From an uncultured Acidimicrobiales bacterium (lineage in GTDB: Bacteria > Actinomycetota > Acidimicrobiia > Acidimicrobiales > SHLQ01), in NCBI GenBank assembly GCA_937922235.1, contig CAKZVC010000033.1, positions 7,274 through 71,273 of the forward strand: a stretch of 64,000 nucleotides of DNA, in the 5' to 3' direction. Below the pieces are notes generated by a model that ran no database searches, was not told the DNA's origin, and was given only the letters and a program-made list of their open reading frames with translations. The position numbers and the translations under genes were made by a program. How positions within the stretch are numbered: position 1 is the stretch's first letter; the number at the start of each line of letters is the position of its first letter. Shown one piece after another: positions 26,687 to 40,450 of this stretch.

Positions 26687-28969
26687 TTACCAGCCGCCTG
26701 AGGAGCCTCCTCCGAAGCCGCCGCCTCCGCCGCCCCAGCCACCGGTGCTGCCGCCGCCGAAGCCGCCACCAAATCCACCGCCGAAGCCTCCTCCGCCACC
26801 GCCGCCACCCCAGCCACCACCGCGATGCGAGCGTCCGCCGCCGTGGCCGCGGAACCCGCCACCGCCGATGATGATGCCGCCGCCAAAGCCACCACCAAAG
26901 CCGCCGCGTCCATTGTGACGCTGACGTCGTTGAGCTTCTCGGTAGAGCTCGTCGGCGGTGATCTCGATCTGTTGGGCGTCCTTGGTCGCGCGGACGGGGT
27001 CGGTGTCGGCCAGGGCCTCAATGCCGCGGAGCTTCCCGCGAAGATTGTCGATGTCCGCCTGAGCCTGCTTGGCACGCCGTGACGAGAACATATGGCTTTG
27101 CACATGCCGGTCGGCCCGATCAACCGCGACCGATGCAGATCGGATCTCGCTGAGGGCCTGGTTTCGAAGCCGCTGCCGCTCGCCCACCGTTGCCTCGAAT
27201 TCCTCGAGCTCGGTATTCACGATCGATTCGACCTGCCCGGCAATTTCCATTGCCTGGAGATACGCCGGCGGATTGATGCGCAGCGCTCCTTCTGCGGCTT
27301 CTTGCATACGGGCAACGTGCTGGGCGACTTCGGGTGCACGAGACGGAACGTCGTGGCGATGCTCGTTGACGTAGTTGATCAGCAAGCGCGCGTCGTCTGC
27401 CGAGGCTGCCACCGCGGACGGTGCCCCTTCCTTCGCCGCGGCCAGAAGCACATCGAGTTCGTCGAGCTCGTCGAGGAGTTCGTCGGCGAGATCGACTGCG
27501 TTCTGGGCTTTGTCGAGCTCGGCGTTCACCATTCGCATGATGGACAGATCGCGTGGAATCTCGCCGAACGACTCCGATGCGAGCGTGCTTTGTTCGGCAC
27601 GGTCGAGCTGACGGTCTGCCTCGTCGGGATGCCCAAGCACGTTCTCAAACGACTCGGTTGCGTGCTCGCTCGACCATCCGTGCATGAGCGAACGGAGCTG
27701 CATCACGCGGCCGCGTTGGCCCGAGACCTCGGGGCTCATGTTCGTTCGGCGTACCGAGGTCTCGGCGTGCCGTTGTTCGAGCGATTCGAGGTCGCCGGCG
27801 ACCGACGCAACTTCCTCGGCGATCGGCTCGAGGTCGCCCTCCATCAGGTCGACGTCGATGCGCATCGCCAACGGATCAAGCAGATCAAGCGCCGCGGCGA
27901 GCTCGGCGAGGCGGCTACGACCAGACCCAACTTCCCACCCCTCGGCCTCACGAGCGTCCGCGGCGTTCATGCCAGAGGAAATTCGGTCGCTGGTCTCACG
28001 ATGTTTAGCGGCGAGCTCGTCAGGCTTACCCCGGAGCTCGTCGATCACGCCTTCGAGCGCGGTCACGTTCGTCTCGGCATCCTCTACGACAGCGAGAGCA
28101 TCGGCGACGTGGCCTTCAACCTCGGTCTGATCCTCGATGCTGTATCCGGCCACGTCATCGCGGGTGACTTCGCTAACCGGCGACCAAGCCTCATACAGGG
28201 TTCGTGACGATTCGGCGGCAGCAAGCTGGGCGGCGTTCAATCGCGCCATGGCGTTGCCTGTGATTCGACCGCCAGCAATCGTTGCTTCCTGCTCGGCGTC
28301 ATACCAGCGAGCTTGCACGTCGGTCACGCGTTTGGCGTTTGCCTCAAAGCGTTCGGCTGCTACTTCACCACGGGAGCTGCGGGTTCGATTCTTCGTGTAG
28401 ATCCAGGCCCCACCGCCTACGAGCGCAGCAGTTCCGAGGATGCCGCCCCCAACGGGAACGGTGTAGTCGGGTGGTGTCGTGCTCAGCCCCTCGACGGTGC
28501 CACCAACTCCACTCGACAGACCAGCGCTGATTTCGCCGTTTGCGAAGAACACGTTCATTCGGCCGACGATGTCGTTCGAGTCGTCATCCAATCGCTCGTC
28601 GAGATCGTCTCCGTAGGCAACCACGGTGTGCCGGTCGCCGGTCGATACGGCAAGCAGAACCGTGTTATCCGCAACGTTGCCGGGCGAGTTGAAGATGGCC
28701 GGGCACGCAGCGCGGACCTGGCCGGCAAGGCGAGCATCGATGCTGCCATTGCCGCTAATGACCTGATCGGTGGCGTACACCGCGAAGTCGACGCCGGTCT
28801 CCTCCTCGGCCGACTGAATTGCGGCTCGCAAGCCTGATTCGTCGCTAAGACCGCCGAGCTCATCGGTGAGGTCACAGGCGTCGGCCTGCGCTCCGACCGT
28901 CGGCGCTGTGGTGAGCAGCGCCACCACGAGTGCGGCTAGGGCGAGAATGATCGAACGGGTTCGTGCCAT
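26687..28969 (-). CDS. TPM-domain membrane protein with long coiled coil and Gly-rich tail
   Basis: Signal peptide, VLLAVSTGDR TPM-like domain, TM helix, helical repeats, GGFGGGSSGGW end. Confidence 0.8.
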   Translation of the reverse strand: MARTRSIILALAALVVALLTTAPTVGAQADACDLTDELGGLSDESGLRAAIQSAEEETGVDFAVYATDQVISGNGSIDARLAGQVRAACPAIFNSPGNVADNTVLLAVSTGDRHTVVAYGDDLDERLDDDSNDIVGRMNVFFANGEISAGLSSGVGGTVEGLSTTPPDYTVPVGGGILGTAALVGGGAWIYTKNRTRSSRGEVAAERFEANAKRVTDVQARWYDAEQEATIAGGRITGNAMARLNAAQLAAAESSRTLYEAWSPVSEVTRDDVAGYSIEDQTEVEGHVADALAVVEDAETNVTALEGVIDELRGKPDELAAKHRETSDRISSGMNAADAREAEGWEVGSGRSRLAELAAALDLLDPLAMRIDVDLMEGDLEPIAEEVASVAGDLESLEQRHAETSVRRTNMSPEVSGQRGRVMQLRSLMHGWSSEHATESFENVLGHPDEADRQLDRAEQSTLASESFGEIPRDLSIMRMVNAELDKAQNAVDLADELLDELDELDVLLAAAKEGAPSAVAASADDARLLINYVNEHRHDVPSRAPEVAQHVARMQEAAEGALRINPPAYLQAMEIAGQVESIVNTELEEFEATVGERQRLRNQALSEIRSASVAVDRADRHVQSHMFSSRRAKQAQADIDNLRGKLRGIEALADTDPVRATKDAQQIEITADELYREAQRRQRHNGRGGFGGGFGGGIIIGGGGFRGHGGGRSHRGGGWGGGGGGGGFGGGFGGGFGGGSTGGWGGGGGGFGGGSSGGW

Positions 28970-28992
28970 GCATCGACCCTAGCGATTCGGGC

Positions 28993-31017
28993 TTAGCTGG
29001 TGCGATTTAGCTCGGGGAACAGCCCGTGAAGTTCGGTGGCGAGCGGGGTGACGAGAGCTGACGAGAAGGTGCGCGTGAGGTGATGGCGATCGCGACGAAC
29101 GATCATGTCGTCGATGACCGCCGGACAATGGGTCTCATTGCACAAGAACCTCGTCATGTCGATGACTGGGAGCTCTGCTGCGTGTGCCGCGTCGATGAGC
29201 ACATCGGCGCCAACGAATGCCTCAGCGACCGGCGTGGCACACGACGAGAGGTCGATGATTGCGGGCGCAGCGCAGTCGACGCCGATGACCTTCCCCCGTG
29301 GGGTCGGCGAGATGATCGCAGCCTTGCTCGGTAGCGCAGCCAGCTGACGGAACACACCGGTGTAGCCGCTCGTGGGGTCGTCTGCTTCTTCCCGAAACGC
29401 GGTCGGCATCGTGAGGACAAGGTCAACATCGTGGGTTCGAACAACATCCTCGAGCTCTCGAAGCGTGTTACTTGCCCACTCTTCGCATCGATCAGGCCCC
29501 GCAAGTCCGGCCGGGAGGCGACATGTCGACCGAATGTTCGTGAGAAGATGCCAGCGCTCTTGGTCGGCGAGCCGTTCAAGCGCGGGGGTCCAATGGGCCG
29601 CATGAGAGTTGCCAATCACAAGCACCACGGTCTCGCTTGTCAGGTCACCGAACGAGCACAACGGACGTGGGCCATCGGTTCGATTGGCGACGCAGCCTCG
29701 GTCGTACACATCGGGTAGATCCCGACGCAGGTGGACAAACGATGGCGTCAACTCGTCGGCCCGGAGCTGCACGCCCAGAACTTCCGTCTCGATTGTCTCG
29801 ATTGCTGTTGAGGTTGGGGCTGCGCCTCCGCTGCCCGTTGTTGTCCCCAACAACACCGCACCAAATCCGAACCCGACAGCGGCTGTCGCCCCGGTGAGGG
29901 CAAGGCCTCGAATCGGACGGGACACGAGAAAGTCGGCACGGCGAGTCGGTTGTTCAATCCACCGGTAGGACGCCATCGATGGGACAACCGACGCTGCGAC
30001 GACACCCACGCGAGCCCACACCGGCAACGGGCCAAGGACGGCGACCGCAAGCCAGAGCACAGGCCAATGCCAGAGGTAGATCGAATACGAGCGAGCACCA
30101 ATCCACTGCATGGGTGCCGCCTCAGATAACCGGACGAGGACCGAGCCCGTCGCATGGGGCGCAGCGAGCAGAACTGCGACCGTGCCGATCGTGGGGGCCA
30201 ACGCTGCGAACCCTGGGAACTGCGTCGACGAATCGAACAGAAGCACGCTCGCGACAATGGACGCGAACCCACCGTAAAGAATGCGCTTCGCAATCCATGG
30301 CGGGCCAGCGTCAAGACGGGTAGATACCGTTGTCGCTGCGAGGGCAGCGACACCCCCGAGCGAGAGTTCCCACACCCGAGTGGTCGTGACGAAATACGCC
30401 TGATCGGGAGCAGTGCTGACCATTCGAACACCAACGATGAACGATGCGGCCGTCACCACAATGGCCATGAGCGCGACCGCACGTTTCGATGATCGGGCGA
30501 GTGCGGCTGCCGCCAGGACGAGGATGGGCCAGGCCGCGTAAAATTGTTCTTCGACGCTCAGCGACCAGAAGTGCTGCACGGGCGAGGCCAGTTCGGACCC
30601 GCCGTGGTAATCGATGGACCGTTCGGCGAATAGCCAGTTCACGATGTACAGCGCCGAACGTTGGATGTCCCACGAGATCGACTGGCCGTATAGCTGTGGT
30701 GCAGCGATACCTGGGGCCCATCGGGGGACGATGAACACGATGCTGCTGATACACGTGAGCACCGCGAACGATGCGGGCAGAAGCCGTCGGGCCCGCTTGG
30801 CATAGAACCGCAACAGCCGAATCGAGCCGGTGTCCTCATACTCACGGACGAGGGCCGAGGTGATCAGAAATCCCGAGATGACGAAGAAGACATCGACTCC
30901 GACGTAGCCACCTGCGAAACCGGCGAGCCCGGCGTGGTAGAGCACGACGAGCACCACAGCAACCGCTCGAAGGCCTTCGATATCAAGGCGAAAGTGCGCG
31001 GTAGGTCGTTGATCCAC
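28993..31017 (-). CDS. acyltransferase-3 / SGNH fusion (OafA/OatA-like O-acetyltransferase)
   Basis: FRLDIEGLRAVAV, GVDVFFVISGFLIT, HFWSLSVEEQFY, GNSHA, DRHHLT. Confidence 0.9.
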   Translation of the reverse strand: MDQRPTAHFRLDIEGLRAVAVVLVVLYHAGLAGFAGGYVGVDVFFVISGFLITSALVREYEDTGSIRLLRFYAKRARRLLPASFAVLTCISSIVFIVPRWAPGIAAPQLYGQSISWDIQRSALYIVNWLFAERSIDYHGGSELASPVQHFWSLSVEEQFYAAWPILVLAAAALARSSKRAVALMAIVVTAASFIVGVRMVSTAPDQAYFVTTTRVWELSLGGVAALAATTVSTRLDAGPPWIAKRILYGGFASIVASVLLFDSSTQFPGFAALAPTIGTVAVLLAAPHATGSVLVRLSEAAPMQWIGARSYSIYLWHWPVLWLAVAVLGPLPVWARVGVVAASVVPSMASYRWIEQPTRRADFLVSRPIRGLALTGATAAVGFGFGAVLLGTTTGSGGAAPTSTAIETIETEVLGVQLRADELTPSFVHLRRDLPDVYDRGCVANRTDGPRPLCSFGDLTSETVVLVIGNSHAAHWTPALERLADQERWHLLTNIRSTCRLPAGLAGPDRCEEWASNTLRELEDVVRTHDVDLVLTMPTAFREEADDPTSGYTGVFRQLAALPSKAAIISPTPRGKVIGVDCAAPAIIDLSSCATPVAEAFVGADVLIDAAHAAELPVIDMTRFLCNETHCPAVIDDMIVRRDRHHLTRTFSSALVTPLATELHGLFPELNRTS

Positions 31018-31108
31018 CTAGGCCTATCGGCCTATACGTCCGCACGATGAGCACCCCACTTTGGGGTATTCGTGCAACTTTTTGGCTGCTCGGGCGTCAT
31101 TACGTGAC

Positions 31109-31270
31109 GTGAACGCAATACCTGACCAGAAAGAAACATCAATCTCTTTGTCCACCGGACAGACCGTGAAGGTCACCCTGTGGATCGCCCTGGCTCTGGT
31201 ACTCGCCGTCGTTCTCGCCATGGCCCTCGCCACCCCAGTAATGACCGCCTTCGGCATGGCACCCCTCTAA
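31109..31270 (+). CDS. small single-TM membrane protein
   Basis: 53 aa with strongly hydrophobic VTLWIALALVLAVVLAMALA. Confidence 0.5.
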   Translation: MNAIPDQKETSISLSTGQTVKVTLWIALALVLAVVLAMALATPVMTAFGMAPL

Positions 31271-31372
31271 ATCGCGCGGCTTTCGGGGTCAGACCCTCCC
31301 GGTCATCGCGCGGCTTTCGGGGTCAGACCCTCCCGGTCATCGCGCGGCTTTCGGGGTCAGACCCTCCAGGTG
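31271..31372 (+). repeat. 3 tandem copies of a 34-bp unit ATCGCGCGGCTTTCGGGGTCAGACCCTCCCGGTC
   Basis: Units start at 31271, 31305 and 31339; no spacers; fourth copy at 31500-31533. Confidence 0.9.
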
Positions 31373-31379
31373 ACTATTT

Positions 31380-31571
31380 CGCTCGGACTTCCGCCGAGAT
31401 CCGCGGTTGCCTACATGGTCGCTACGCGAGCTCCGCTCCCCATTTGGGCTTGAGGAAGGCGATGTTTGAAGCGTCAGCGGCAAACTCGAGTTCGCGGTCA
31501 TCGCGCGGCTTTCGGGGTCAGACCCTCCCGGTCATCGGAAGCGCAAACGGAGAGCGGAGCTCGCGTAGCGA
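31380..31571. repeat. REP-like family A copy 2 plus inverted partial copy flanking the fourth 34-bp unit
   Basis: 31380-31434 matches 16382-16436; 31552-31571 is the reverse complement of 31419-31438. Confidence 0.75.
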
Positions 31572-31614
31572 ACTTCGGAAGCGAAGTGGGGTCTCGACCG
31601 GAAGTGTCGAGGTG

Positions 31615-32202
31615 TTAAGGCACCAGAGCTACGTGGAGAAAGCGGAGAAGCTCTTGGCGTCGTTCGGCGAGCGATCGAAGGCTTGGCTCGACTCCCATGG
31701 CGCGGAGCACTTCGACTTCGGTGGCTACGCCCATGATCGTTGAGTAGAGCGAGAAGAGGAGGAGTCGGGCGTCGTCGCCACGGACTCGGCCTTCTTTGAG
31801 GGCGATCTCGAGCGAGTGCTGTGCGGCGTCGATGTGGTTGGCCAGTCGTGATGACAGCTGCACTGCGACCATCGATCCGGGGCGTGACGCCTCGCGGAGT
31901 AGACCTAGCAGTGCTGGACGTTGAACCGCGAGGCGAAACACCACGCGGACCGTTCCTTCGACTTGGGCCCACACGTCGTTCGGATCGACGCGTTCGACCA
32001 CCTGGTCGAGCTCGGCGATGAACTGGTTGGCTGCTTCATCGAGCACGGCTTCGAAGAGCGCTTGTTTCGACTTGAAGTAGTAGAGAATCGACTGTTTACG
32101 TAAGCCGAGTTCGCGGGCGAGGGCGTCGAGCGAGGTGCCATCGACGCCGGTAGTGCCGAAGGAATCCAGCGCCGTATCGAGAATCCGCTGCTGCGTGCTC
32201 AC
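31615..32202 (-). CDS. TetR/AcrR family regulator
   Basis: RILDTALDSF..G..GTSLDALARELGLRKQSILYYFKSK HTH; divergent from the lipid operon. Confidence 0.9.
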   Translation of the reverse strand: MSTQQRILDTALDSFGTTGVDGTSLDALARELGLRKQSILYYFKSKQALFEAVLDEAANQFIAELDQVVERVDPNDVWAQVEGTVRVVFRLAVQRPALLGLLREASRPGSMVAVQLSSRLANHIDAAQHSLEIALKEGRVRGDDARLLLFSLYSTIMGVATEVEVLRAMGVEPSLRSLAERRQELLRFLHVALVP

Positions 32203-32277
32203 GTCCCGACAATAACCAGAAACCGGATCTCTCTACCAATTGGTAGAAAGCGGGCGAATGCTGCTAGAACAAGAGGC

Positions 32278-34662
32278 GTGATCAGCGAGAGTCTTGCGGG
32301 AAAACGAATCGCCGTGACCGGATCGACCGGCTTCTTGGGCACAGCGCTCATCGAACGCCTCGTTCGTTCGGTCCCCGACTGCGAACTCATCTTGTTGGTA
32401 CGCCCTGGACGACGGGGCGCCCAAGCTCGCGTCACGCGAGACGTCCTCAAGAACGACGCCTTCAACGGCCTGCGCAATGAGCTTGGCAAGGACGCGTTTG
32501 CCGAGCTGTGCGAACGTCGGGTTACCGCCGTGGCGGGCGATGTCGGAACCGATGGGCTTGGGCTCTCCGACGACGACCTCAAGCTCTGGCTTAGCGCCGA
32601 TGTGATCATCCACTCCGCAGCGACGGTGTCGTTCGACTCGCCGCTCGATACCGCCGTCGAGGTCAACCTGCTCGGCCCCCAGCGCATTGCGAACCTGTGC
32701 AATGCACACGGCGTCACCCCTCACCTTGTTGCGGTGTCGACGTGTTACGTGGCCGGCAGCCGCCGCGGCTCCGCCCCCGAACAGCTCGTCGACGAAAGCC
32801 CATACTTCGTCGACGTGAACTGGCGACGCGAGGTCGAAGCGGCGCGCCGCAGCCGCCTCGACGAAGAGACGGCAAGCCGTCAACCCGCTCGCCTCACCCA
32901 GTTCCGAGCCGAAGCACAGCGCGAACTCGGCGCTGTCGGAACCCCAGCACTCGCGGCGAAGACCGAGACGATTCGCCAAGCGTGGGTCACGACCCAAATG
33001 GTCGAGAACGGTCGAGCTCGCGCCTCGTCGCTTGGTTTCCCCGACGCCTACGCCTACACCAAAGCCCTCGGTGAGCTCGCCGTGGTCGAGACCCGCGGCG
33101 ACGTGCCGATTTCGATCGTGCGTCCGTCGATCATCGAGTCCGCATGGTCCGAACCAGTCGCCGGTTGGATTCGCGGATTCCGCATGGCCGAGCCGGTCAT
33201 CATCTCCTACGCACGCGGGCTGCTCAGCGAGTTCCCCGGCGTCCCCGAAGGTGTCGTCGACGTCATCCCAGTCGACATGGTGGTCGCCGCAATTATCGCC
33301 GTCGCCGCCCGCGGCCCCAAGGACGACGGCCCCGATGTCACCCAGGTCGCGTCGGGCAGCGCCAACCCGCTCCGCTACAAGAACCTCGTCGACTACGCCG
33401 AAGACTGGTTCACACGCAACCCGATCTACGACGAGCTCGGTCAGCCAATCGCTGTTGCGGCATGGCAGTTCCCCGGTCGCGGCCGAGTTGAACGTCAGCT
33501 GGTACGGGCCCGTACCAGCCTTGAACGAGCCGATCAGGTGCTCGAGAAGCTGCCGCTTCGTGGCCGCACCGCCGAGTACGCCATGCAGCTCCAGGCTCGC
33601 AAGGAACTCCTCGACCAGGCGTCGGGCTACGTCGAGCTGTACGGCGCATACGCCGAGTGCGAGGCCTTGTATGGCCTCGACAACTTGCTCGGCCTTTGGG
33701 ACGAGCTCACCCCTGAGGACCAAGCAGCATTCGGCTTCGACCCGCGAGTCATCGACTGGAAGCATTACGTCCAGAACGTGCACCTTCCTTCGGTCGTGCG
33801 CCAGGCTCGCGCGAAGACCACGCCCGGCAAGAAGACCGGCCCAACTCGAAGCACGCGCCTCCGAGCGCAGGTGCTGTCCCCAGACCGCCAACTGGCCGTC
33901 TTCGATCTCGAGAACACGATCATCGCATCGAACGTCGTCACCTCGTTTGCCTGGCTCGCAACTCGCAACCTCTCCCCCAGTGAGCGAATGGTGTTTGCGG
34001 CAAAGGCCTTGTCGCAAGGCCCGGGATGGCTGGCGCTCGACCGCAAAGACCGCAGCGATTTCCTGCGCAGCTTCTACCGCAACTACCGCGGTGCCACCAC
34101 GGCTCAGATCGAAACCGACGCCCAAGAGCTCCTCAGCGACTATCTGCTGTCGAAGTCGTTCCCGGCAGCGATTCGTCGCGTGCGTGAGCACCGGGCGCTC
34201 GGTCATCGCACGTTGTTGATCACTGGAGCGCTCGACTTCGTGATCGAACCGCTCCGCCCGCTGTTCGACGACGTCATTTCTGCCGAAATGAGCCAGGTGA
34301 ACGGCCGCTACACCGGCGGCATGCGATCGGTTCCGCCAACGGCTGAGAACCGCTACCAGGCCCTCGCCGACTTTGCCGAAGCCCACAGTATCGATCTCCG
34401 TGAAGCCGTCGCCTACGCCGACTCCTCGAGCGATCTTCCGATGCTCGAAGCGGTCGGCTTCCCGGTTGCGGTAAACCCCGAAACCAAACTGGCCGCCATT
34501 GCCCGCAAGCGCGGCTGGCTTGTCGAAGACTTCCAGAAGCAGTCTGGCGCTCCCGCCCGACGACTTCCCATTGCGCCTCGAACAGGCGCCCGATCAGAAC
34601 CACTGCTGAGCTCGATGATGAATCGCGGCTCGGGTCTCGCCAAGGAGAAGACTCGCCGATGA
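32278..34662 (+). CDS. fatty acyl-CoA reductase-like (NAD_binding_4/Sterile) domain fused to HAD-IB hydrolase
   Basis: TGSTGFLG, YAYTKALGE, IVRPSII, DVIPVD; C-terminal VFDLENTII and YADSSSDLPML..VNP. Confidence 0.85.
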   Translation: MISESLAGKRIAVTGSTGFLGTALIERLVRSVPDCELILLVRPGRRGAQARVTRDVLKNDAFNGLRNELGKDAFAELCERRVTAVAGDVGTDGLGLSDDDLKLWLSADVIIHSAATVSFDSPLDTAVEVNLLGPQRIANLCNAHGVTPHLVAVSTCYVAGSRRGSAPEQLVDESPYFVDVNWRREVEAARRSRLDEETASRQPARLTQFRAEAQRELGAVGTPALAAKTETIRQAWVTTQMVENGRARASSLGFPDAYAYTKALGELAVVETRGDVPISIVRPSIIESAWSEPVAGWIRGFRMAEPVIISYARGLLSEFPGVPEGVVDVIPVDMVVAAIIAVAARGPKDDGPDVTQVASGSANPLRYKNLVDYAEDWFTRNPIYDELGQPIAVAAWQFPGRGRVERQLVRARTSLERADQVLEKLPLRGRTAEYAMQLQARKELLDQASGYVELYGAYAECEALYGLDNLLGLWDELTPEDQAAFGFDPRVIDWKHYVQNVHLPSVVRQARAKTTPGKKTGPTRSTRLRAQVLSPDRQLAVFDLENTIIASNVVTSFAWLATRNLSPSERMVFAAKALSQGPGWLALDRKDRSDFLRSFYRNYRGATTAQIETDAQELLSDYLLSKSFPAAIRRVREHRALGHRTLLITGALDFVIEPLRPLFDDVISAEMSQVNGRYTGGMRSVPPTAENRYQALADFAEAHSIDLREAVAYADSSSDLPMLEAVGFPVAVNPETKLAAIARKRGWLVEDFQKQSGAPARRLPIAPRTGARSEPLLSSMMNRGSGLAKEKTRR

Positions 34663-36266
34663 GCCCTCGTAAAGCTCCACGTCCAGGCCTCGTGCTAGAC
34701 GTAGATGCCTCCACCCCACCCGTCTTGTTCCACCACGGTGAGAACTTCCGGATGGAGAAGCTGCCGGTTGGCCGGTCGCGCATCATCTACCCAGCCGAGC
34801 CACTGCGCGGCCTTGAAGATCCCGATCAGGCCATCCGTGATGCGCTCGACAACCCGATCGACTCCGAGCCGCTCAAGGCGCTTATGTCCCCCGACATGAA
34901 GCTCACGATCGCGTTCGACGACATCAGCTTGCCACTGCCTCCCATGCGCAAGCCCGACATCCGCCAACGCGTCATCGAAGCTGTGCTCGATATCGCCGCT
35001 GAGGTCGGCGTCGACGACGTACACATCATCGCGGCACTTGCGCTCCACCGCCGGATGACCGAGGACGAGCTACGCCACGCGGTCGGCGACCGGGTCTACG
35101 ACGCCTTCGCGCCAAGCGGCCGCCTCTACAACCACGACGCCGAAGACCCCGACGGCATGACGCACTTGGGCAAGACCGAGCACGGCGAAGAGGTGCAGAT
35201 CTCCAAGCGTGCAGTCGACAGCGACCTGACCGTCTACGTCAACATCAACCTCGTGTCGATGGATGGCGGCCATAAGAGCACCGCAACCGGGCTCTCGGGT
35301 TACACGGCGCTGCGCCATCATCACAACGTCGACACGATGCAGAAGTCGAAGTCGTTCATGGATCCGCCGAACTCCGAGCTCCATACGAAGAACTGGCGCC
35401 AGGGTGACGTCATCCGCAGTGCTGGCGTGAAGATCTTCCAGATCGAGACGACCATCAACAACAACACGTTCGGCGAAACCGGCCCTCTCTCGATGCTGCA
35501 GAAGCGTGAGTGGGAATGGACCGGGCGAGACCGGGCCAAGTTCCTCGCCATGCAGGGCGGGCTCAACTACATGACGCCGTCCGCTCGGCGCAAGGTGTTC
35601 CACAACTGGAAGGCTCCGTACGAGCTGACCTCAGTCCAAGCCGGCGAGATCGAAGCCGTACACAAGGTCACCACCGAAAACACCTTTGCCCAGCACCTCG
35701 TGCCGGTCGAGGGGCAGACCGACATCATGACGATGGGCTTGCCGTACATCAGCCCGTACAACGTCAACTCGGTCATGAACCCGATCCTGGTGGCGGTCCT
35801 CGGGCTCGGCTACTTCTTCAACCTGTACCGCGGCAAGCCGCTGGTCCGCGAGGGTGGCGTTCTCATCATGAGCCACCCAACACCGTGGGACTTCAACCCG
35901 GTCCACCACCCCAGCTACATCGACTTCTTCGAGCAGGTGCTCGCCGAGACGACCGATCCTCACGAGATCGAGCGCAAGTACGAAAAGCAGTACGCAGAAG
36001 ACGAGTGGTACCGCCACCTGTATCGCACCAGTTACGCCTACCACGGCGTCCACCCGTTCTACATGTGGTACTGGTGCAGCCACGCGCTGCAGCATCTTGG
36101 CCAGGTCATCATTGTCGGCGGCGACCCGAAGGCCGTTCGTCGTCTCGGGTTCCGACCCGCATCAACGCTCCAGGATGCACTTGAGATGGCCACGGACACC
36201 GTCGGGCCGCAGCCGACGATCACCCACTACCACAACCCGCCAATGCTGATGGCGGACGTGAAGTAG
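34659..36266 (+). CDS. lactate racemase (LarA/DUF2088)-like domain protein
   Basis: ALDNPIDSEPL, TIAFDDIS, ALALHRRMT, NHDAED, DGGHKS typical of the LarA N-domain. Confidence 0.75.
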   Translation: MSPRKAPRPGLVLDVDASTPPVLFHHGENFRMEKLPVGRSRIIYPAEPLRGLEDPDQAIRDALDNPIDSEPLKALMSPDMKLTIAFDDISLPLPPMRKPDIRQRVIEAVLDIAAEVGVDDVHIIAALALHRRMTEDELRHAVGDRVYDAFAPSGRLYNHDAEDPDGMTHLGKTEHGEEVQISKRAVDSDLTVYVNINLVSMDGGHKSTATGLSGYTALRHHHNVDTMQKSKSFMDPPNSELHTKNWRQGDVIRSAGVKIFQIETTINNNTFGETGPLSMLQKREWEWTGRDRAKFLAMQGGLNYMTPSARRKVFHNWKAPYELTSVQAGEIEAVHKVTTENTFAQHLVPVEGQTDIMTMGLPYISPYNVNSVMNPILVAVLGLGYFFNLYRGKPLVREGGVLIMSHPTPWDFNPVHHPSYIDFFEQVLAETTDPHEIERKYEKQYAEDEWYRHLYRTSYAYHGVHPFYMWYWCSHALQHLGQVIIVGGDPKAVRRLGFRPASTLQDALEMATDTVGPQPTITHYHNPPMLMADVK

Positions 36267-36271
36267 GCGAG

Positions 36272-37252
36272 ATGACTGCTGTATCGAACTACCGAGCAAA
36301 GATGTCTCAGCGTCTTGCCGGCACCGAAGTTCCTCTCGTTGGCCGGCTTCGCCGACCGTTGCAAGCACTTCCGTTCCCGTACACGGCGCCATCGGTGCCG
36401 CAGTCTGTCGAGATCCCCGAAAAGCGCGGTGTGACTGGCACGGACTTCCCCACTGATTGGGCCCGCACCGAACCGGCTCGACGCACTCGGGCGGTGCTAA
36501 TCGATGGCGTTGTTCGCCCGGTGATGAGCGGACTAGCTCAGCCGACCCGCCGCGGCACCGACCGTTTGTCAGACCTCACCGGCCCCGCAGTGTTCGCGGC
36601 CAACCACCACAGCCACGTCGACACCCCACTGCTCCTGAGCTCGCTACCGACTCCCTGGCGCCACCGTGCTGTTGTCGGCGCCGCTGCTGATTACTTCTTT
36701 GGCACCCGAATCACCGGCACCCTTTCGGCGTTAGTCATCGGCGCCATTCCCATCGACAGGACGAAGATCAGTCGGACGTCCACCGACTTGGCGCGTGACC
36801 TGATCAGCGAGGGATGGTCACTCGTCGTGTTCCCTGAAGGCGGACGCAGCCCGGATGGCTGGGGTCAGCCGTTCCGCGGCGGGGCAGCCTTCATCGCCCA
36901 GCGCACCAACGTGCCAGTGGTCCCTGTCCACATCGAAGGCACGGGTCGGATTCTGCGCAAGGGCAAAAGCACCCCGACCCGCAGTCGCACGACAATCACC
37001 TTCGGTGAACCGCTGTACTGCCGCGACGACGAAGATGCACGAGCGTTCAACACTCGGATCGAAGCCCGAGTGGCCGAGCTCGCCGACGAAGCGATGACGA
37101 ACTGGTGGGATGCGCGCAAGCGTGCCCATGATCAGGGGACGCCATCGCTTACCGGCCCGCAGACCGCAAGCTGGCGACGAGTATGGGAACTCGATGCCGA
37201 CGGCCCAGAGCGACGCTCATCGAGGTCGACGTGGCCCAAGGGCAAGGCCTAA
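36272..37252 (+). CDS. PlsC-like lysophospholipid acyltransferase
   Basis: NHHSHVD (HxxxxD), GAAADYFF, VFPEGGRS. Confidence 0.88.
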   Translation: MTAVSNYRAKMSQRLAGTEVPLVGRLRRPLQALPFPYTAPSVPQSVEIPEKRGVTGTDFPTDWARTEPARRTRAVLIDGVVRPVMSGLAQPTRRGTDRLSDLTGPAVFAANHHSHVDTPLLLSSLPTPWRHRAVVGAAADYFFGTRITGTLSALVIGAIPIDRTKISRTSTDLARDLISEGWSLVVFPEGGRSPDGWGQPFRGGAAFIAQRTNVPVVPVHIEGTGRILRKGKSTPTRSRTTITFGEPLYCRDDEDARAFNTRIEARVAELADEAMTNWWDARKRAHDQGTPSLTGPQTASWRRVWELDADGPERRSSRSTWPKGKA

Positions 37253-37266
37253 TCACGCGGTTCTTC

Positions 37267-37290
37267 ATTTCGTTGACTTCTCAACGAAAT
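37267..37290 (+). terminator. hairpin after the lipid operon
   Basis: ATTTCGTTGA-CTTC-TCAACGAAAT perfect 10-bp stem. Confidence 0.55.
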
Positions 37291-37299
37291 TGACTCGCT

Positions 37300-37317
37300 G
37301 GGACCCATGTGGGACCC
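37300..37317. promoter_or_regulatory. GGGACC direct repeat with 11-bp period (candidate SARP/BTAD operator)
   Basis: GGGACCC-ATGT-GGGACCC; the same arrangement occurs at 40582-40598. Confidence 0.4.
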
Positions 37318-37334
37318 GGTATCAGTAGAACGAT

Positions 37335-37445
37335 GCACATGGACGGCGGTTCATGTCGCTCGGTGTGAGCGGCTGCTCTCCTTGGGCATCCAGGTATTGA
37401 AGTTCCTCAACAGACTTCCCTCTGCCTGGATGCCCAGGAGGGCAA
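37335..37445 (+). ncRNA. candidate structured small RNA
   Basis: Two short hairpins, then a ~20-bp stem (37374-37394 / 37425-37444) with a C/U-rich loop; no family recognised; strand inferred. Confidence 0.3.
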
Positions 37446-37477
37446 CACGGTCTCGACGCTGAGGGCACACCCATGTC

Positions 37478-37529
37478 GGATCTCTGCCCCTTTTCAGACC
37501 TGACAGGTCGGTTTTGGGGCAGAAATCTC
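37478..37529. repeat. REP-like hairpin, family C, copy 2
   Basis: TCTGCCCC-TTTTCAGACCTGACAGGTCGGTTTT-GGGGCAGA. Confidence 0.55.
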
Positions 37530-37705
37530 GTAGGCCGTTGCGCGGCGCTATTGAGCGATTATTGATCGCCAGTCTTTGCTAAATGCTATCCTCACTTCTG
37601 GGCATGTATTTTGGTAGACCCCAGCAGGTGATCCTGTTGTGGACTACAGCCGTTCGGGTTGCTCGAACTATTCTCACGACGGATGGGTAGAAAGACGGGA
37701 CACGC

Positions 37706-40450
37706 GTGAAGGTTGGGGACGGTCAGCAATGGCGAGAGCGCATATCGTCACTTGTTTTCTCCAGCGACCATCCAACGGTCATCGCCGCCCCTCCAGGCTT
37801 CGGAGTTTCAACCCTCGCGGCCTATCTGGGATCATCGGTTCACCCGACACCAGCATCGGTAGTCGACCTACACGCTGTCGACGTCGCCGAGCTCTCAATC
37901 GATGCACTCCGACAACAGCACGTGGTGTTCGTGGCGCGGGAGATACCGGACCTCACGAAGATCCCTGGGGCTCAGCTGATCAGTCATTCGCAGCTTCGGT
38001 TCACCGAAGACGAGGCAATCGAGGTCGCCGAAGCTCACGGCGTTGACGCATCGGTTGCCCGATCTATCCATTTGTTCACTGCAGGCTGGCCAGGCTATTT
38101 CAACGCCTGCCTCGACGTGCTTTCCCAGGACGCACGAACCACAAGTTCGCCTCCCATCACCGCCGACGATGCCTACGATCGACTTCACAAGGGACCGCAC
38201 CTGCGCGCCCTCATCAGCACGTGTACCGCCGATCTCACCCCGACCGATCACTCCCAGATTGCGCAACTCACTCACTTCACCAAGATCTCCCCCGGACTGG
38301 TCGAGGCTCTGCTCGGCCCGAAAGGACTCAGTCGAATTCAACGATCCGGTCTGCCGATCGTCGAAACCCAACCCGGTTGGTACGAGATCCTCGAGCCCGT
38401 GCGAGGCGTTCTCCGATCGAGCTCCACACTCGATGAGCAAACCGCTCGCAAGCTTGCACCCGAGCTCATTGCTGAGGCCGGCATGGTTGCCGGCGCCCGA
38501 ATTCTCCTGGCCGCGGGTCAGCCAGCCGCCGCGGCGACTGCCCTCCGGTCGGTACCCGTGCACGAACTCGACGAAGGCAGCCAGCCGACACTTCTGTCGC
38601 TGCTACGAACCGTCCTCGATAGCGAGAAGGACGACGGTTCGCTTCGACTTCGTCTGGCGAGGGTGTACCACAACCATGGCGATCTCGTGTCGCTTCGACG
38701 GTCACTCGAAGATGCCACCGTTGCGGCGATCGATCAGCTTCGCCCCGATCTTGAGCTCGAGGCTCAATCCGAGCTGTTGTTACTCGACCTCGACATTGTC
38801 GACCATGAGATCGTTCGCGACAGGCTCGAGATCCTCCAGTCGAAGGCCAAAGACCACGCAAACCAGTCATCACTCATTCGTCTTCGCGAAGTGGCACTCA
38901 TGCTCGAGTCCGAACGTGAGGAGCTCGACCACATCTACTCAGCTGCGTCCCGACTCGAATCTGTTGCGAACGATTGGGAGTTGATTGGCGAGAACGCCCG
39001 TGCTGCAGCCACCCTGCGCATGCTTGCGAGCCGCCCCCTCTTCCACCTTGGCCGCCACGCCAAAGGTGTCGAAGTTGCCAAACGTGCCTGCGAGCTTTCG
39101 CAGCAACACCCGCAAGGGCATCTCAAGAGTCTTCTTCTTCTCGCCCGCGAGCTTGCGATGACTGCCGACCACGAGAGCTTTCTGCCAATCGCCGATCGGG
39201 TCAGCGAGCTCGCTCCTGCTTCCGGCTTGGCTTGGATCGACGCGTACGACAACTGGGCGCGCATGGTCATGGCAGGGTTCGCTCTCGACGACCAAGGCGT
39301 GATGGCGCACCAGCGGCGGGGCGAATCGCTCATGCCGCGCGAACTGTTAGAGCACGGCACCGGTGCAATCTTCTTTTCCGATGCTGCGACCGCCGCCGCA
39401 ACAGCGGGTGAACTCGAGTCCGCCTCGACGTTCCTTGACCGCGCATTGCAGCGTCGTGCACTTGCACCGCTCGATGTCGGCTGCGCTGAAGTGTTGGTGC
39501 TTGCCTACCGTAGAGATCCGCAATGCAAGGACGCGCTCGAGGTGCTCGCGACGACGACTCCGATCCCCGCAGAACGCAAATGGCGCCTCGACCTTGCCGT
39601 CGAGCTCGCACTCGGCGAGCCGAGTTCTTCGCGTCACGACGAGGCGGTGCAGCACGGACTTGAACGGGTCTATGACTCGACGATTCGAGCATTTGCCGCA
39701 ACCTCTGCCCCCGAAAGCGTGTCGCTGAAGTTGCTGGGCGACTTCGCAGTCCAGCGAGGGTCGCGAAGTATTCCAGTTGCAGGCGGTAAGGCGACCGAGC
39801 TCGTGAAGTTCCTTGGCGTTCGGATGAAAGCCGTGCCCGCCGACGTCGTCATCGACTACCTGTGGGGCAATGTCAGCACCGACGTTGGCCTTCGCCGACT
39901 GAAGAACGTCGTGAGCCGGGCCCGGGCCAGCCTGGGCCAGGACGCAATCGAACGTCGCGGTCAGACGGTAGGACTTGGCGCCCACGTGACATCGGATCTT
40001 GCTGAGTTGCGTACGCTTCTTCGCCATTTGCGAGTCGAACCGAATGACACCACTGCCGCCCGACGCTGTGTCGAGCTGTATGCCGGACCGTTGCTCGAAC
40101 TCGATGTGTATGACGACTGGGTAGCCGCAGAACGTGAGTCGCTCGCAGCAGCGGTGTTGTCGGCGCTTGAGCTAGTGGTCGATGCCGCTGATGCCCCGAG
40201 CGCATGGACGCTCGACGCACTCGCCCGGATTCAACCCAACGACGATCGGCCGTATATGGCTGTCGCGGATCTTGCGGAACGACAACAGGACGCGACAACC
40301 CTCCGACTTGCGCTTGCACAAGTTCGGAGGATCTGTCTTGCCTTGGACCTCGACGTGCCGGCCGGGTATGACCGGCTGCACGCGAGAATTACCGAGCTAG
40401 CCGTGCCAGACGCCGTTGGCGCTTTCGAGGGTTCCGGAGGCAACAGCTGA
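37706..40450 (+). CDS. large regulator: MalT-like degenerate NTPase, helical TPR-like region, C-terminal winged-helix/BTAD
   Basis: IAAPPGFGVSTL, LRFTEDEA, TAGWP; C-terminal LKLLGDFAV, IDYLWG, ELYAGPLL..YDDWVAAERE. Confidence 0.8.
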   Translation: MKVGDGQQWRERISSLVFSSDHPTVIAAPPGFGVSTLAAYLGSSVHPTPASVVDLHAVDVAELSIDALRQQHVVFVAREIPDLTKIPGAQLISHSQLRFTEDEAIEVAEAHGVDASVARSIHLFTAGWPGYFNACLDVLSQDARTTSSPPITADDAYDRLHKGPHLRALISTCTADLTPTDHSQIAQLTHFTKISPGLVEALLGPKGLSRIQRSGLPIVETQPGWYEILEPVRGVLRSSSTLDEQTARKLAPELIAEAGMVAGARILLAAGQPAAAATALRSVPVHELDEGSQPTLLSLLRTVLDSEKDDGSLRLRLARVYHNHGDLVSLRRSLEDATVAAIDQLRPDLELEAQSELLLLDLDIVDHEIVRDRLEILQSKAKDHANQSSLIRLREVALMLESEREELDHIYSAASRLESVANDWELIGENARAAATLRMLASRPLFHLGRHAKGVEVAKRACELSQQHPQGHLKSLLLLARELAMTADHESFLPIADRVSELAPASGLAWIDAYDNWARMVMAGFALDDQGVMAHQRRGESLMPRELLEHGTGAIFFSDAATAAATAGELESASTFLDRALQRRALAPLDVGCAEVLVLAYRRDPQCKDALEVLATTTPIPAERKWRLDLAVELALGEPSSSRHDEAVQHGLERVYDSTIRAFAATSAPESVSLKLLGDFAVQRGSRSIPVAGGKATELVKFLGVRMKAVPADVVIDYLWGNVSTDVGLRRLKNVVSRARASLGQDAIERRGQTVGLGAHVTSDLAELRTLLRHLRVEPNDTTAARRCVELYAGPLLELDVYDDWVAAERESLAAAVLSALELVVDAADAPSAWTLDALARIQPNDDRPYMAVADLAERQQDATTLRLALAQVRRICLALDLDVPAGYDRLHARITELAVPDAVGAFEGSGGNS

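Follow-up and report, generated by a model that had tools for sequence, protein, structure and literature searches.

A TetR-flanked reductase, LarA-type and acyltransferase operon of Acidimicrobiales as a candidate compact form of the elb ether-lipid system

Results

A coupled operon conserved across Acidimicrobiia

The window analysed here is a stretch of 64,000 nucleotides from contig CAKZVC010000033.1 of an uncultured Acidimicrobiales bacterium (assembly GCA_937922235.1). At positions 31615-37252, a TetR-family regulator gene stands back to back with three closely packed genes, which encode a fatty acyl reductase-like domain fused to a HAD-type phosphatase, a member of the LarA superfamily and a PlsC-type acyltransferase (Table 1). 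We compared this operon with its relatives in Acidimicrobiia and with elb, the ether-lipid cluster of Myxococcus xanthus, of which it is a candidate counterpart.

Table 1. Features of the operon locus, with positions in the window
Feature	Position	Strand	Evidence
TetR-family regulator gene, 195 amino acids (aa)	31615-32202	-	Pfam TetR_N E 1.4e-13; divergent from operon
Candidate TetR operator, perfect 16-bp palindrome TCTACCAATTGGTAGA	32232-32247	.	Repeat arms 32229-32239 / 32240-32250
Reductase::HAD-IB fusion gene, 794 aa	32278-34662	+	Pfam NAD_binding_4 + HAD
Fatty acyl-CoA/ACP reductase-like domain, aa 1-520	~32278-33837	+	GSTGFLG, YAYTK motifs
HAD-IB phosphatase-like domain, aa 539-737	~33892-34488	+	Motif I FDLENT
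LarA-superfamily gene (LarAH14/15/16, ElbC-type), 535 aa	34659-36266	+	Pfam Lar_N, NF052592
PlsC/LPLAT-type acyltransferase gene, 326 aa	36272-37252	+	Pfam Acyltransferase, HX4D, FPEGGRS

The start codon of the LarA gene overlaps the stop codon of the fusion gene (ATGA), and five bases lie between the LarA stop and the acyltransferase ATG, as read directly from the sequence. A first-pass annotation of this DNA had described tightly coupled genes, and the open reading frames (ORFs) were recovered at exactly the coordinates it gave. Its gene identities also stood: the regulator, the LarA/DUF2088-like protein and the acyltransferase matched the Pfam families TetR_N, Lar_N and Acyltransferase, and its reductase fused to a HAD-IB phosphatase was found as NAD_binding_4 and TIGR01490 matches within one 794-aa product.

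To place the operon among its relatives, we sampled 151 Acidimicrobiia genomes. The LarAH14/15/16 family was detected over its cut-off in 28 of them, nearly all from the order of the window, and 9 of the 35 other sampled genomes of that order had none. Of the loci, 20 were fetched, one of which is truncated at a contig end. The order reductase-HAD, LarA, PlsC was retained in all 19 relatives with full flanks, at 43-78% protein identity, a recurrence far beyond chance. These are real genes with translational coupling, and their synteny extends across Acidimicrobiia. The LarA protein has its nearest homologues (77-93% identity) among proteins from Acidimicrobiales and Acidimicrobiia metagenome-assembled genomes (MAGs), and operon DNA was recovered in marine and aquatic metagenome runs; the runs listed for this DNA included none of RNA. 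Searches of the region for other signals gave no Rfam family above its gathering score in 30500-38200, no site in a sigma-70 promoter scan, and two terminator-like sites, below the shuffled mean of 4.1.

Correspondence to the elb cluster

In M. xanthus, elbA (MXAN_1531) is described as encoding a short-chain dehydrogenase/reductase (SDR), elbB a HAD-like phosphohydrolase, elbC a protein of "unknown function", elbD a fusion of fatty acyl reductase (FAR), acyl-CoA synthetase (ACS), acyl carrier protein (ACP) and acylglycerol-phosphate acyltransferase (AGPAT) domains, and elbE (MXAN_1527) a further SDR (PMC9131029, PMC13012113). Both alkyl and vinyl ether lipids are reported to require elbD; the same account records fatty aldehyde as detected and fatty alcohol as not detected, and leaves the pathway steps unassigned (PMC9131029).

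We located ElbD-type loci by a profile scan of genome contigs with an ElbD alignment, among the matches listed, and mapped their genes by tblastn. Residues 1-520 of the fusion protein aligned to the N-termini of proteins of about 1450 aa with ElbD architecture; for most of the 120 matches listed, identity was 27-38% and the alignment spanned 95-100% of the query. Against one Myxococcales locus (L020), the reductase gave 29% identity to the ElbD-type protein over 535 columns (E 4e-52), the HAD domain 31% to the protein at the ElbB position over 218 columns (E 2e-29), and the acyltransferase 36% to the C-terminal ElbD acyltransferase domain over 139 columns (E 5e-22). The LarA protein aligned to the protein at the elbC position of this locus with 49% identity over 525 columns, and LarA-type proteins at that position are 45-50% identical to that of the window, at full length, across phyla.

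A LarA-type gene lies directly upstream of the ElbD-type gene in at least 11 loci (L013, L014, which is cut, L015, L016, L019-L023, L025 and L028), whose titles name Polyangiaceae, Myxococcales, Bradymonadaceae, "Deltaproteobacteria", Acidobacteriota and Pyrinomonadaceae. The order HAD-LarA-ElbD is found, among the loci listed, in L013, L015, L016, L020, L022, L023, L025 and L028; the HAD gene is 2.4 kb away in L019, which makes nine loci with a HAD gene before the LarA-type gene, and L014 and L021 show the pair LarA-ElbD. Three large Myxococcota genomes likewise carry HAD-LarA-ElbD(-SDR), and a fourth has HAD-LarA unlinked to ElbD, an arrangement also described in a review. The Lar_N gene between the HAD and ElbD genes, together with the HAD-like ElbB of M. 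xanthus (PMC9131029), bears out the statement in the first-pass annotation that the myxobacterial ElbD cluster also has HAD and DUF2088 genes. The equation of ElbC with the LarA type rests on gene order and on loci with Myxococcota titles.

When the modules were compared with five whole genomes that bear ElbD, the top match fell within the elb locus for the reductase (5/5), the HAD domain (5/5) and the acyltransferase (4/5), so that "re-partitioned Elb-like pathway", the phrase of the earlier annotation, is a fair description. Phylogenetic profiling over 121 Myxococcota genomes gave a matching picture. An ElbD-type protein was present in 39, namely the 37 with an ElbC-type protein over the cut-off plus G222, where it scored 724 bits, and G271, where it is split; the other 82 showed no ElbC-type match above 221 bits. 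The ElbC-type protein is a core part of elb. Taken together, these alignments make it highly likely that the operon is homologous to elb, with counterparts of the ElbD N-terminus (reductase), ElbB (HAD), ElbC (LarA-type) and the ElbD C-terminus (acyltransferase).

A LarA-type protein with an intact cofactor site and a single catalytic histidine

The LarA protein matched Lar_N (E 1e-39) and, with a score of 881.5 bits (cut-off 740), the NCBIfam family NF052592, named "NPN-dependent hydroxyacid isomerase, LarAH14/15/16 family", where NPN is the nickel-pincer nucleotide. Alignment to Lactiplantibacillus plantarum LarA (5HUQ) paired D72 with D88, R75 with L91, H108 with H130, H174 with N197, K184 with K206 and H200 with H222. 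The lysine that tethers NPN (K206), the nickel-ligand histidine (H222) and the ribose-binding aspartate (D88) are all present. We then surveyed 30 family members, 20 from Acidimicrobiia and 10 linked to ElbD, and found D88, H130, N195, N197, K206, H221 and H222 invariant in all of them, which indicates that the cofactor site and one catalytic histidine are under strict selection.

The remaining active-site positions differ. The position of the second catalytic histidine (H174), which racemisation or epimerisation requires along with H108, is asparagine in 30/30 members, and that of R75, which contacts the carboxylate of the substrate as well as the phosphate of NPN, is leucine in 27/30 and valine in 3/30. 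The protein thus keeps all the residues that hold NPN and one catalytic histidine, and it has lost the second histidine and the arginine. Since the carboxylate arginine is replaced and the second histidine is asparagine throughout, classical 2-hydroxy-acid racemisation is unlikely, and on the residues at these two positions we rejected a classical 2-hydroxy-acid racemase as a candidate function. The protein is a LarA-family member by descent, but probably not a racemase. LarA groups 14 and 15 are described as lacking H174 (PMC12611868), and a different hydride-mediated reaction has been suggested for them (PMC7583248).

The AlphaFold2 model of the protein is confident (pLDDT 92.3, pTM 0.91). 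Its top Foldseek match in the PDB is 9Q3K (E 2e-35, TM 0.77/0.86), with 9Q3J (TM 0.72/0.85) and 5HUQ (TM 0.64/0.78) also matched. In the model, the two-domain LarA fold is kept, and its nearest structures are the single-histidine LarA-like enzymes 9Q3K and 9Q3J. The ligand of these enzymes has tentatively been modelled as a phosphorylated polyol (PMC12611868).

The genome carries a single Lar_N gene. The first-pass annotation had noted that no larBCE cofactor genes occur in the window; this held, as the contig of the window carries no larB, larC or larE, but the genome encodes each of them elsewhere, over the respective cut-offs: larB (C38:7819-8436) and larC (C38:6677-7780) side by side and larE at C23:35471-36238. 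Among the 151 Acidimicrobiia genomes, LarC was present in 28/28 carriers of the LarA type versus 1/123 genomes without it, and among the 121 Myxococcota genomes in 37/37 carriers versus 44/84 others. It was also matched in 4/5 genomes with ElbD loci. We consider an NPN-dependent enzyme likely on the strength of these residues and cofactor genes.

Two further loci bear on the cofactor genes. In one genome from another family of Acidimicrobiia (G128:C18:22875-26563, locus L105), larC and the ElbC-type gene are divergent and about 1 kb apart, a physical link of cofactor synthesis with the lipid operon. The 1.8-Mb Myxococcota genome G250 holds a fragmented ElbC-type gene with several stop codons (C1:875010-875975) and a larC with two TAA stops (C1:576892-578022), and no ElbD-type protein was found in it; in this reduced genome, the ElbC/larC/ElbD system seems to have decayed as a whole.

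The reductase, HAD and acyltransferase modules

The N-terminal part of the fusion protein matched Pfam NAD_binding_4 (E 2.9e-57), of the male-sterility/FAR type, with the Sterile domain below threshold (31.8 bits, cut-off 35.4). Its C-terminal part matched Pfam HAD (E 7.3e-26) and the HAD-IB family TIGR01490 of NCBIfam (109.3 bits, cut-off 98.3). The HAD motif IV (ADSSSDLPML) is present. As the earlier annotation had read it, motif I has DLENT in place of DxDxT, within the longer motif FDLENT: the nucleophile aspartate is kept, and the aspartate two positions on, which acts as general acid/base in DxDxT, is glutamate. FDLENT is identical in all 19 Acidimicrobiia loci that cover the HAD region, and standalone ElbB-type HADs have DxDGT in 8/11 cases and DLEGT in 3/11, so the glutamate is a recurrent, conserved variant. 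We also considered the motif as a sign of decay, which its invariance in the 19 relatives rules out.

The acyltransferase matched PF01553 (E 2.8e-20, 72.9 bits, cut-off 23). It carries NHHSHVD (HX4D) and FPEGGRS and has an AAADYFF block in common with ElbD acyltransferase domains; in an alignment of ElbD-type proteins, the columns DYFF, NHxSHxD and FPEGTR are invariant. Its TIGR00530 score is below the cut-off (61.6 vs 102.95), indicating that it is not an equivalog of the housekeeping PlsC. In the three operon proteins, Pfam found no AMP-binding and no PP-binding domain.

A dehydrogenase gene relocated from the operon

All 19 relatives have a gene of about 1.2 kb between the fusion and LarA genes that is absent from the operon of the window; in L106, it encodes a Zn-dehydrogenase of the medium-chain dehydrogenase/reductase type. 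The genome of the window has one close homologue of this dehydrogenase, at G000:C37:87026-88237 (L130:8027-9238), with 56% identity (E 3.5e-134). The best match of the C37 protein was the operon dehydrogenase in 5/5 relatives (52-56%), with the next match at 38% or less; the gene was relocated and not lost. It now stands alone among unrelated genes, namely a divergent gene for a SerA-like D-2-hydroxyacid dehydrogenase and a DUF1015 gene.

An assembly artefact as the cause of the missing gene was ruled out by contigs from three runs in two studies, which bridge the junction at 34659 with 0-1 differences; two of these three runs may be the source sample. The bridging contigs indicate that the three-gene form is real. 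Additionally, in two long metagenomic ORFs, P0142 (1460 aa) and P0143 (1542 aa), a single frame combines Pfam domains of the reductase, the HAD phosphatase and the Zn-dehydrogenase, and P0142 has Lar_N as well; these are either natural fusions of operon genes or read-through gene calls.

A conserved palindrome between regulator and operon

The intergenic region between the TetR gene and the operon measures 75 bp. A divergent TetR homologue (37-58% identity) is present in 14 of the 20 relatives' loci, and a palindrome of the form (T/C)TACCAnnTGGTA(G/A) lies upstream of the reductase start in 14/14 relatives with a TetR-reductase intergenic region, a count that includes L107 and L114, which have one mismatched half-site, were missed by the exact-arm script and were added by eye. 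The conserved palindrome is a phylogenetic footprint of an operator, to which TetR is predicted to bind. The regulator has a TetR_N helix-turn-helix, and the intergenic region that it shares with the operon contains a palindrome, as expected for a TetR regulator with a divergent operator.

DNA around the operon

The spacer downstream of the TetR gene contains a 34-bp unit in three exact tandem copies (31271-31372), with a fourth copy 130 bp further (31500-31533). Two arms of about 20 bp, inverted to each other, flank this fourth copy (~31404-31433 and ~31550-31575). The 34-bp unit occurs 37 times, with up to three mismatches, on 12 contigs of the genome and is a dispersed repeat resembling repetitive extragenic palindromes or miniature inverted-repeat transposable elements. 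The repeat probably accounts for the 187-aa ORF at 31180-31743, as an artefact.

Downstream, a 914-aa ORF (37706-40450, + strand) has no Pfam or NCBIfam match; its protein-atlas features place it near BTAD/AfsR-SARP-type regulators with AAA/TPR parts, with a very high score, and a paralogue with 36% identity lies on contig C57. Upstream, 26687-31017 (- strand) encodes a membrane acyltransferase with AT3 and SGNH domains (674 aa, a weak SucT relative) and a 760-aa TPM-domain protein. We considered the 914-aa ORF and the AT3-SGNH gene as operon members and rejected both, as neither stands beside the operon in the loci of the 20 relatives; the TPM gene was not included in that search.

Discussion

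Proposed pathway

The operon is real and is a variant form of a known system, whose ether-forming chemistry it makes testable. We favour, with moderate confidence, the reading that it is a TetR-repressed, compact actinobacterial form of the elb system, and that it most likely makes 1-O-alkyl-glycerolipids. That its product is an ether lipid at all is given the same moderate confidence. The assignment of ether-bond formation to the LarA-type enzyme is a much more tentative proposal, and we regard it as doubtful at present.

In the proposed pathway, the reductase domain would convert acyl-CoA or acyl-ACP of the general pool to a fatty aldehyde or alcohol. NPN would allow the LarA-type enzyme to store a hydride for a short time and so to carry out a redox-neutral step, without racemisation, on a substrate of the glycerol-phosphate type. 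In the version that we prefer, the hemiacetal of fatty aldehyde and glycerol-3-phosphate would lose water, and the hydride of the glycerol C2 would be passed to the alkyl C1', giving 1-alkyl-dihydroxyacetone phosphate. The Zn-dehydrogenase might then reduce the ketone, a step that the SDR ElbE might take in myxobacteria; PlsC would acylate sn-2, and the HAD domain would strip the phosphate. TetR is predicted to bind the conserved palindrome and to be released on a lipid signal. A search for PF10520, the family of CarF/PEDS1-type plasmalogen desaturases, gave no match in the genome or in any control genome.

More generally, the ElbC-type LarA protein might be the missing ether-bond enzyme of the aerobic elb pathway, acting by NPN "borrowed-hydrogen" catalysis, although we would rate this as possible and no higher. 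A hydride from C2 of the glycerol phosphate, or from the fatty alcohol, would be delivered to an oxocarbenium or hemiacetal carbon, yielding alkyl-dihydroxyacetone phosphate (alkyl-DHAP) or alkylglycerol phosphate with no net redox change. The preferred mechanism would explain the single histidine, the lost carboxylate site, the presence of aldehyde without alcohol in M. xanthus, and the strict association of ElbC, ElbD and LarC.

Several observations weigh against the reading of the operon as a compact elb system that makes ether lipids. A literature search at listing level turned up no record of ether lipids from Acidimicrobiia. ElbD homologues are no guarantee of such lipids: Pontiella has these homologues, yet ether lipids are given as undetected in the account of PMC11868695. 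A purified Frankia LarAH14 is described as inactive, though only in seven hydroxy-acid assays (PMC7583248). The operon itself lacks the ACS and ACP domains of M. xanthus elb, and it lacks the ElbA/ElbE SDR genes. Of the ElbD-type loci, L017, L026, L027 and L029 showed no LarA gene near the ElbD-type gene within the locus, which was the extent of that search, and G154, the one ElbD-locus genome in five without a LarC match, is of uncertain completeness. Furthermore, the comparison loci are MAG loci titled Myxococcales, Polyangiaceae and the like, which serve as proxies for M. xanthus DK1622, and the co-occurrence counts, which come from related and hence non-independent genomes, exaggerate the support and are suggestive, not statistical.

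Alternative explanations

One alternative, which we judge unlikely, is that the operon makes ester-type neutral lipids without an ether bond, such as fatty alcohols, wax-ester-like lipids or acylglycerols: the reductase would supply an alcohol, PlsC would esterify it, the HAD domain would dephosphorylate, and the LarA-type protein would tune a side reaction. Reductase and acyltransferase domains do suit fatty-alcohol lipid synthesis, but this explanation would leave a strictly conserved NPN enzyme without a role, and the ElbC-type protein co-occurs with ElbD in 39/39 genomes. That wax synthases of bacteria mostly belong to the WS/DGAT family, not to the PlsC type, also counts against it. The occurrence of ElbD homologues in organisms without detected ether lipid, as given in PMC11868695, would fit the ester-type product; the only homologous cluster studied experimentally, in contrast, is reported to be required for ether lipids (PMC9131029).

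Equally unlikely in our view is that the LarA-type protein acts on the backbone or head group, for example by isomerising a glycerol phosphate, glycerate or sugar phosphate through a 1,2-hydride shift or a one-way epimerisation, with PlsC acylating and the HAD domain trimming the product. Known LarA enzymes isomerise small hydroxy acids and sugar acids (PMC11770544), the closest solved relatives have glycolytic genes as neighbours and apparently bind a phosphorylated polyol (PMC12611868), and a hydride shift to the adjacent carbon has been proposed for single-histidine LarA homologues (Desguin 2020, PMC7583248). Against this stand the active-site residues, leucine or valine at the R75 position and asparagine for the second histidine in 30/30, which make classical racemisation unlikely, and the surroundings of the operon, with no sugar or hydroxy-acid genes beside it in 20 relatives among the query genes listed for the search.

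An inducible operon for salvage or remodelling of exogenous lipids, such as marine alkylglycerols, instead of de novo synthesis would agree with the conserved candidate operator and TetR-type repression, which is common in substrate-induced pathways, and with the marine and aquatic metagenomes that hold operon DNA. It is nevertheless very improbable: both the acyl reductase and the PlsC module serve anabolism, a biosynthetic role is described for the homologous operon of M. xanthus (PMC9131029), and no transporter or lipase among the listed query genes is syntenic in the relatives.

Implications

Elb is the main aerobic bacterial ether-lipid pathway, and its ether-bond step has been a question since 2014. 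Our comparison points to a nickel-cofactor step in that pathway, as the ElbC-type protein is a LarA-family member with an intact NPN site that co-occurs strictly with ElbD and larC and persists in a minimal actinobacterial operon of three or four genes. A full-text search found no publication tying LarA or DUF2088 to ether lipids; the supplementary tables of Desguin 2020, which lay outside that search, may list lipid-type neighbours of group 14. Of the papers on NPN, the main text of PMC7583248 has no mention of lipids and that of PMC11796402 has it only in a reference title, and a sponge-symbiont preprint on elb clusters mentions neither LarA nor DUF2088.

If the proposed chemistry were correct, it would extend that of the nickel-pincer cofactor past racemases and provide the first NPN enzyme in lipid metabolism as well as the first non-isomerase member of the LarA family. 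The LarAH14/15/16 family was over its cut-off in 73/301 sampled Actinomycetota genomes, a count that includes G358, G413 and G485, which are flagged as unpublished; excluding the six flagged genomes, it is 70/295. Many actinobacteria, marine Acidimicrobiia included, may therefore be unrecognised sources of non-isoprenoid alkyl glycerol ethers, which serve as environmental biomarkers.

Comparison with known systems

Among characterised systems, the nearest to the operon of the window is elbABCDE of M. xanthus (Lorenzen et al. 2014, as reviewed in PMC9131029 and PMC13012113). Homologous modules are shared for the reductase, the HAD phosphatase, the LarA-type protein at the elbC position and the AGPAT-type acyltransferase. 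In both systems, the first three of these functions stand next to one another, and the link to larC is equally strict. Besides the missing synthetase and carrier domains and the missing SDR genes already weighed, the last of which the relatives replace by the Zn-dehydrogenase, the two differ in that the reductase of the window is fused to HAD and not to ACS-ACP-AGPAT, with the acyltransferase as a separate gene, that its HAD motif I reads DxExT, and that the operon lies beneath a divergent TetR gene.

With respect to the LarA-type protein, the closest enzymes are LarA_Sp and LarA_Bw (9Q2U, 9Q3K and 9Q3J; PMC12611868), together with groups 14 and 15 of Desguin 2020. All have the LarA fold, the lysine tether, the nickel-ligand histidine and the ribose-binding aspartate, with one catalytic histidine, asparagine at the second-histidine position and a length of about 500 aa, longer than classical LarA. 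In contrast, the protein of the window is only 18-23% identical to LarA_Sp and LarA_Bw, has leucine in place of Arg75/Lys76, and stands among lipid genes, whereas theirs stand among glycolytic genes.

Finally, the AGPS route of eukaryotes and myxobacteria, which consists of FAR, GNPAT, alkyl-DHAP synthase and acyl/alkyl-DHAP reductase, may follow the same logic as that proposed for the window, with a reductase-derived chain, an intermediate at the DHAP level, ketone reduction and sn-2 acylation. The operon differs from it in having no AGPS-type flavoenzyme among its own genes, which were the extent of this comparison, and in placing an NPN enzyme at the position that is left unexplained.

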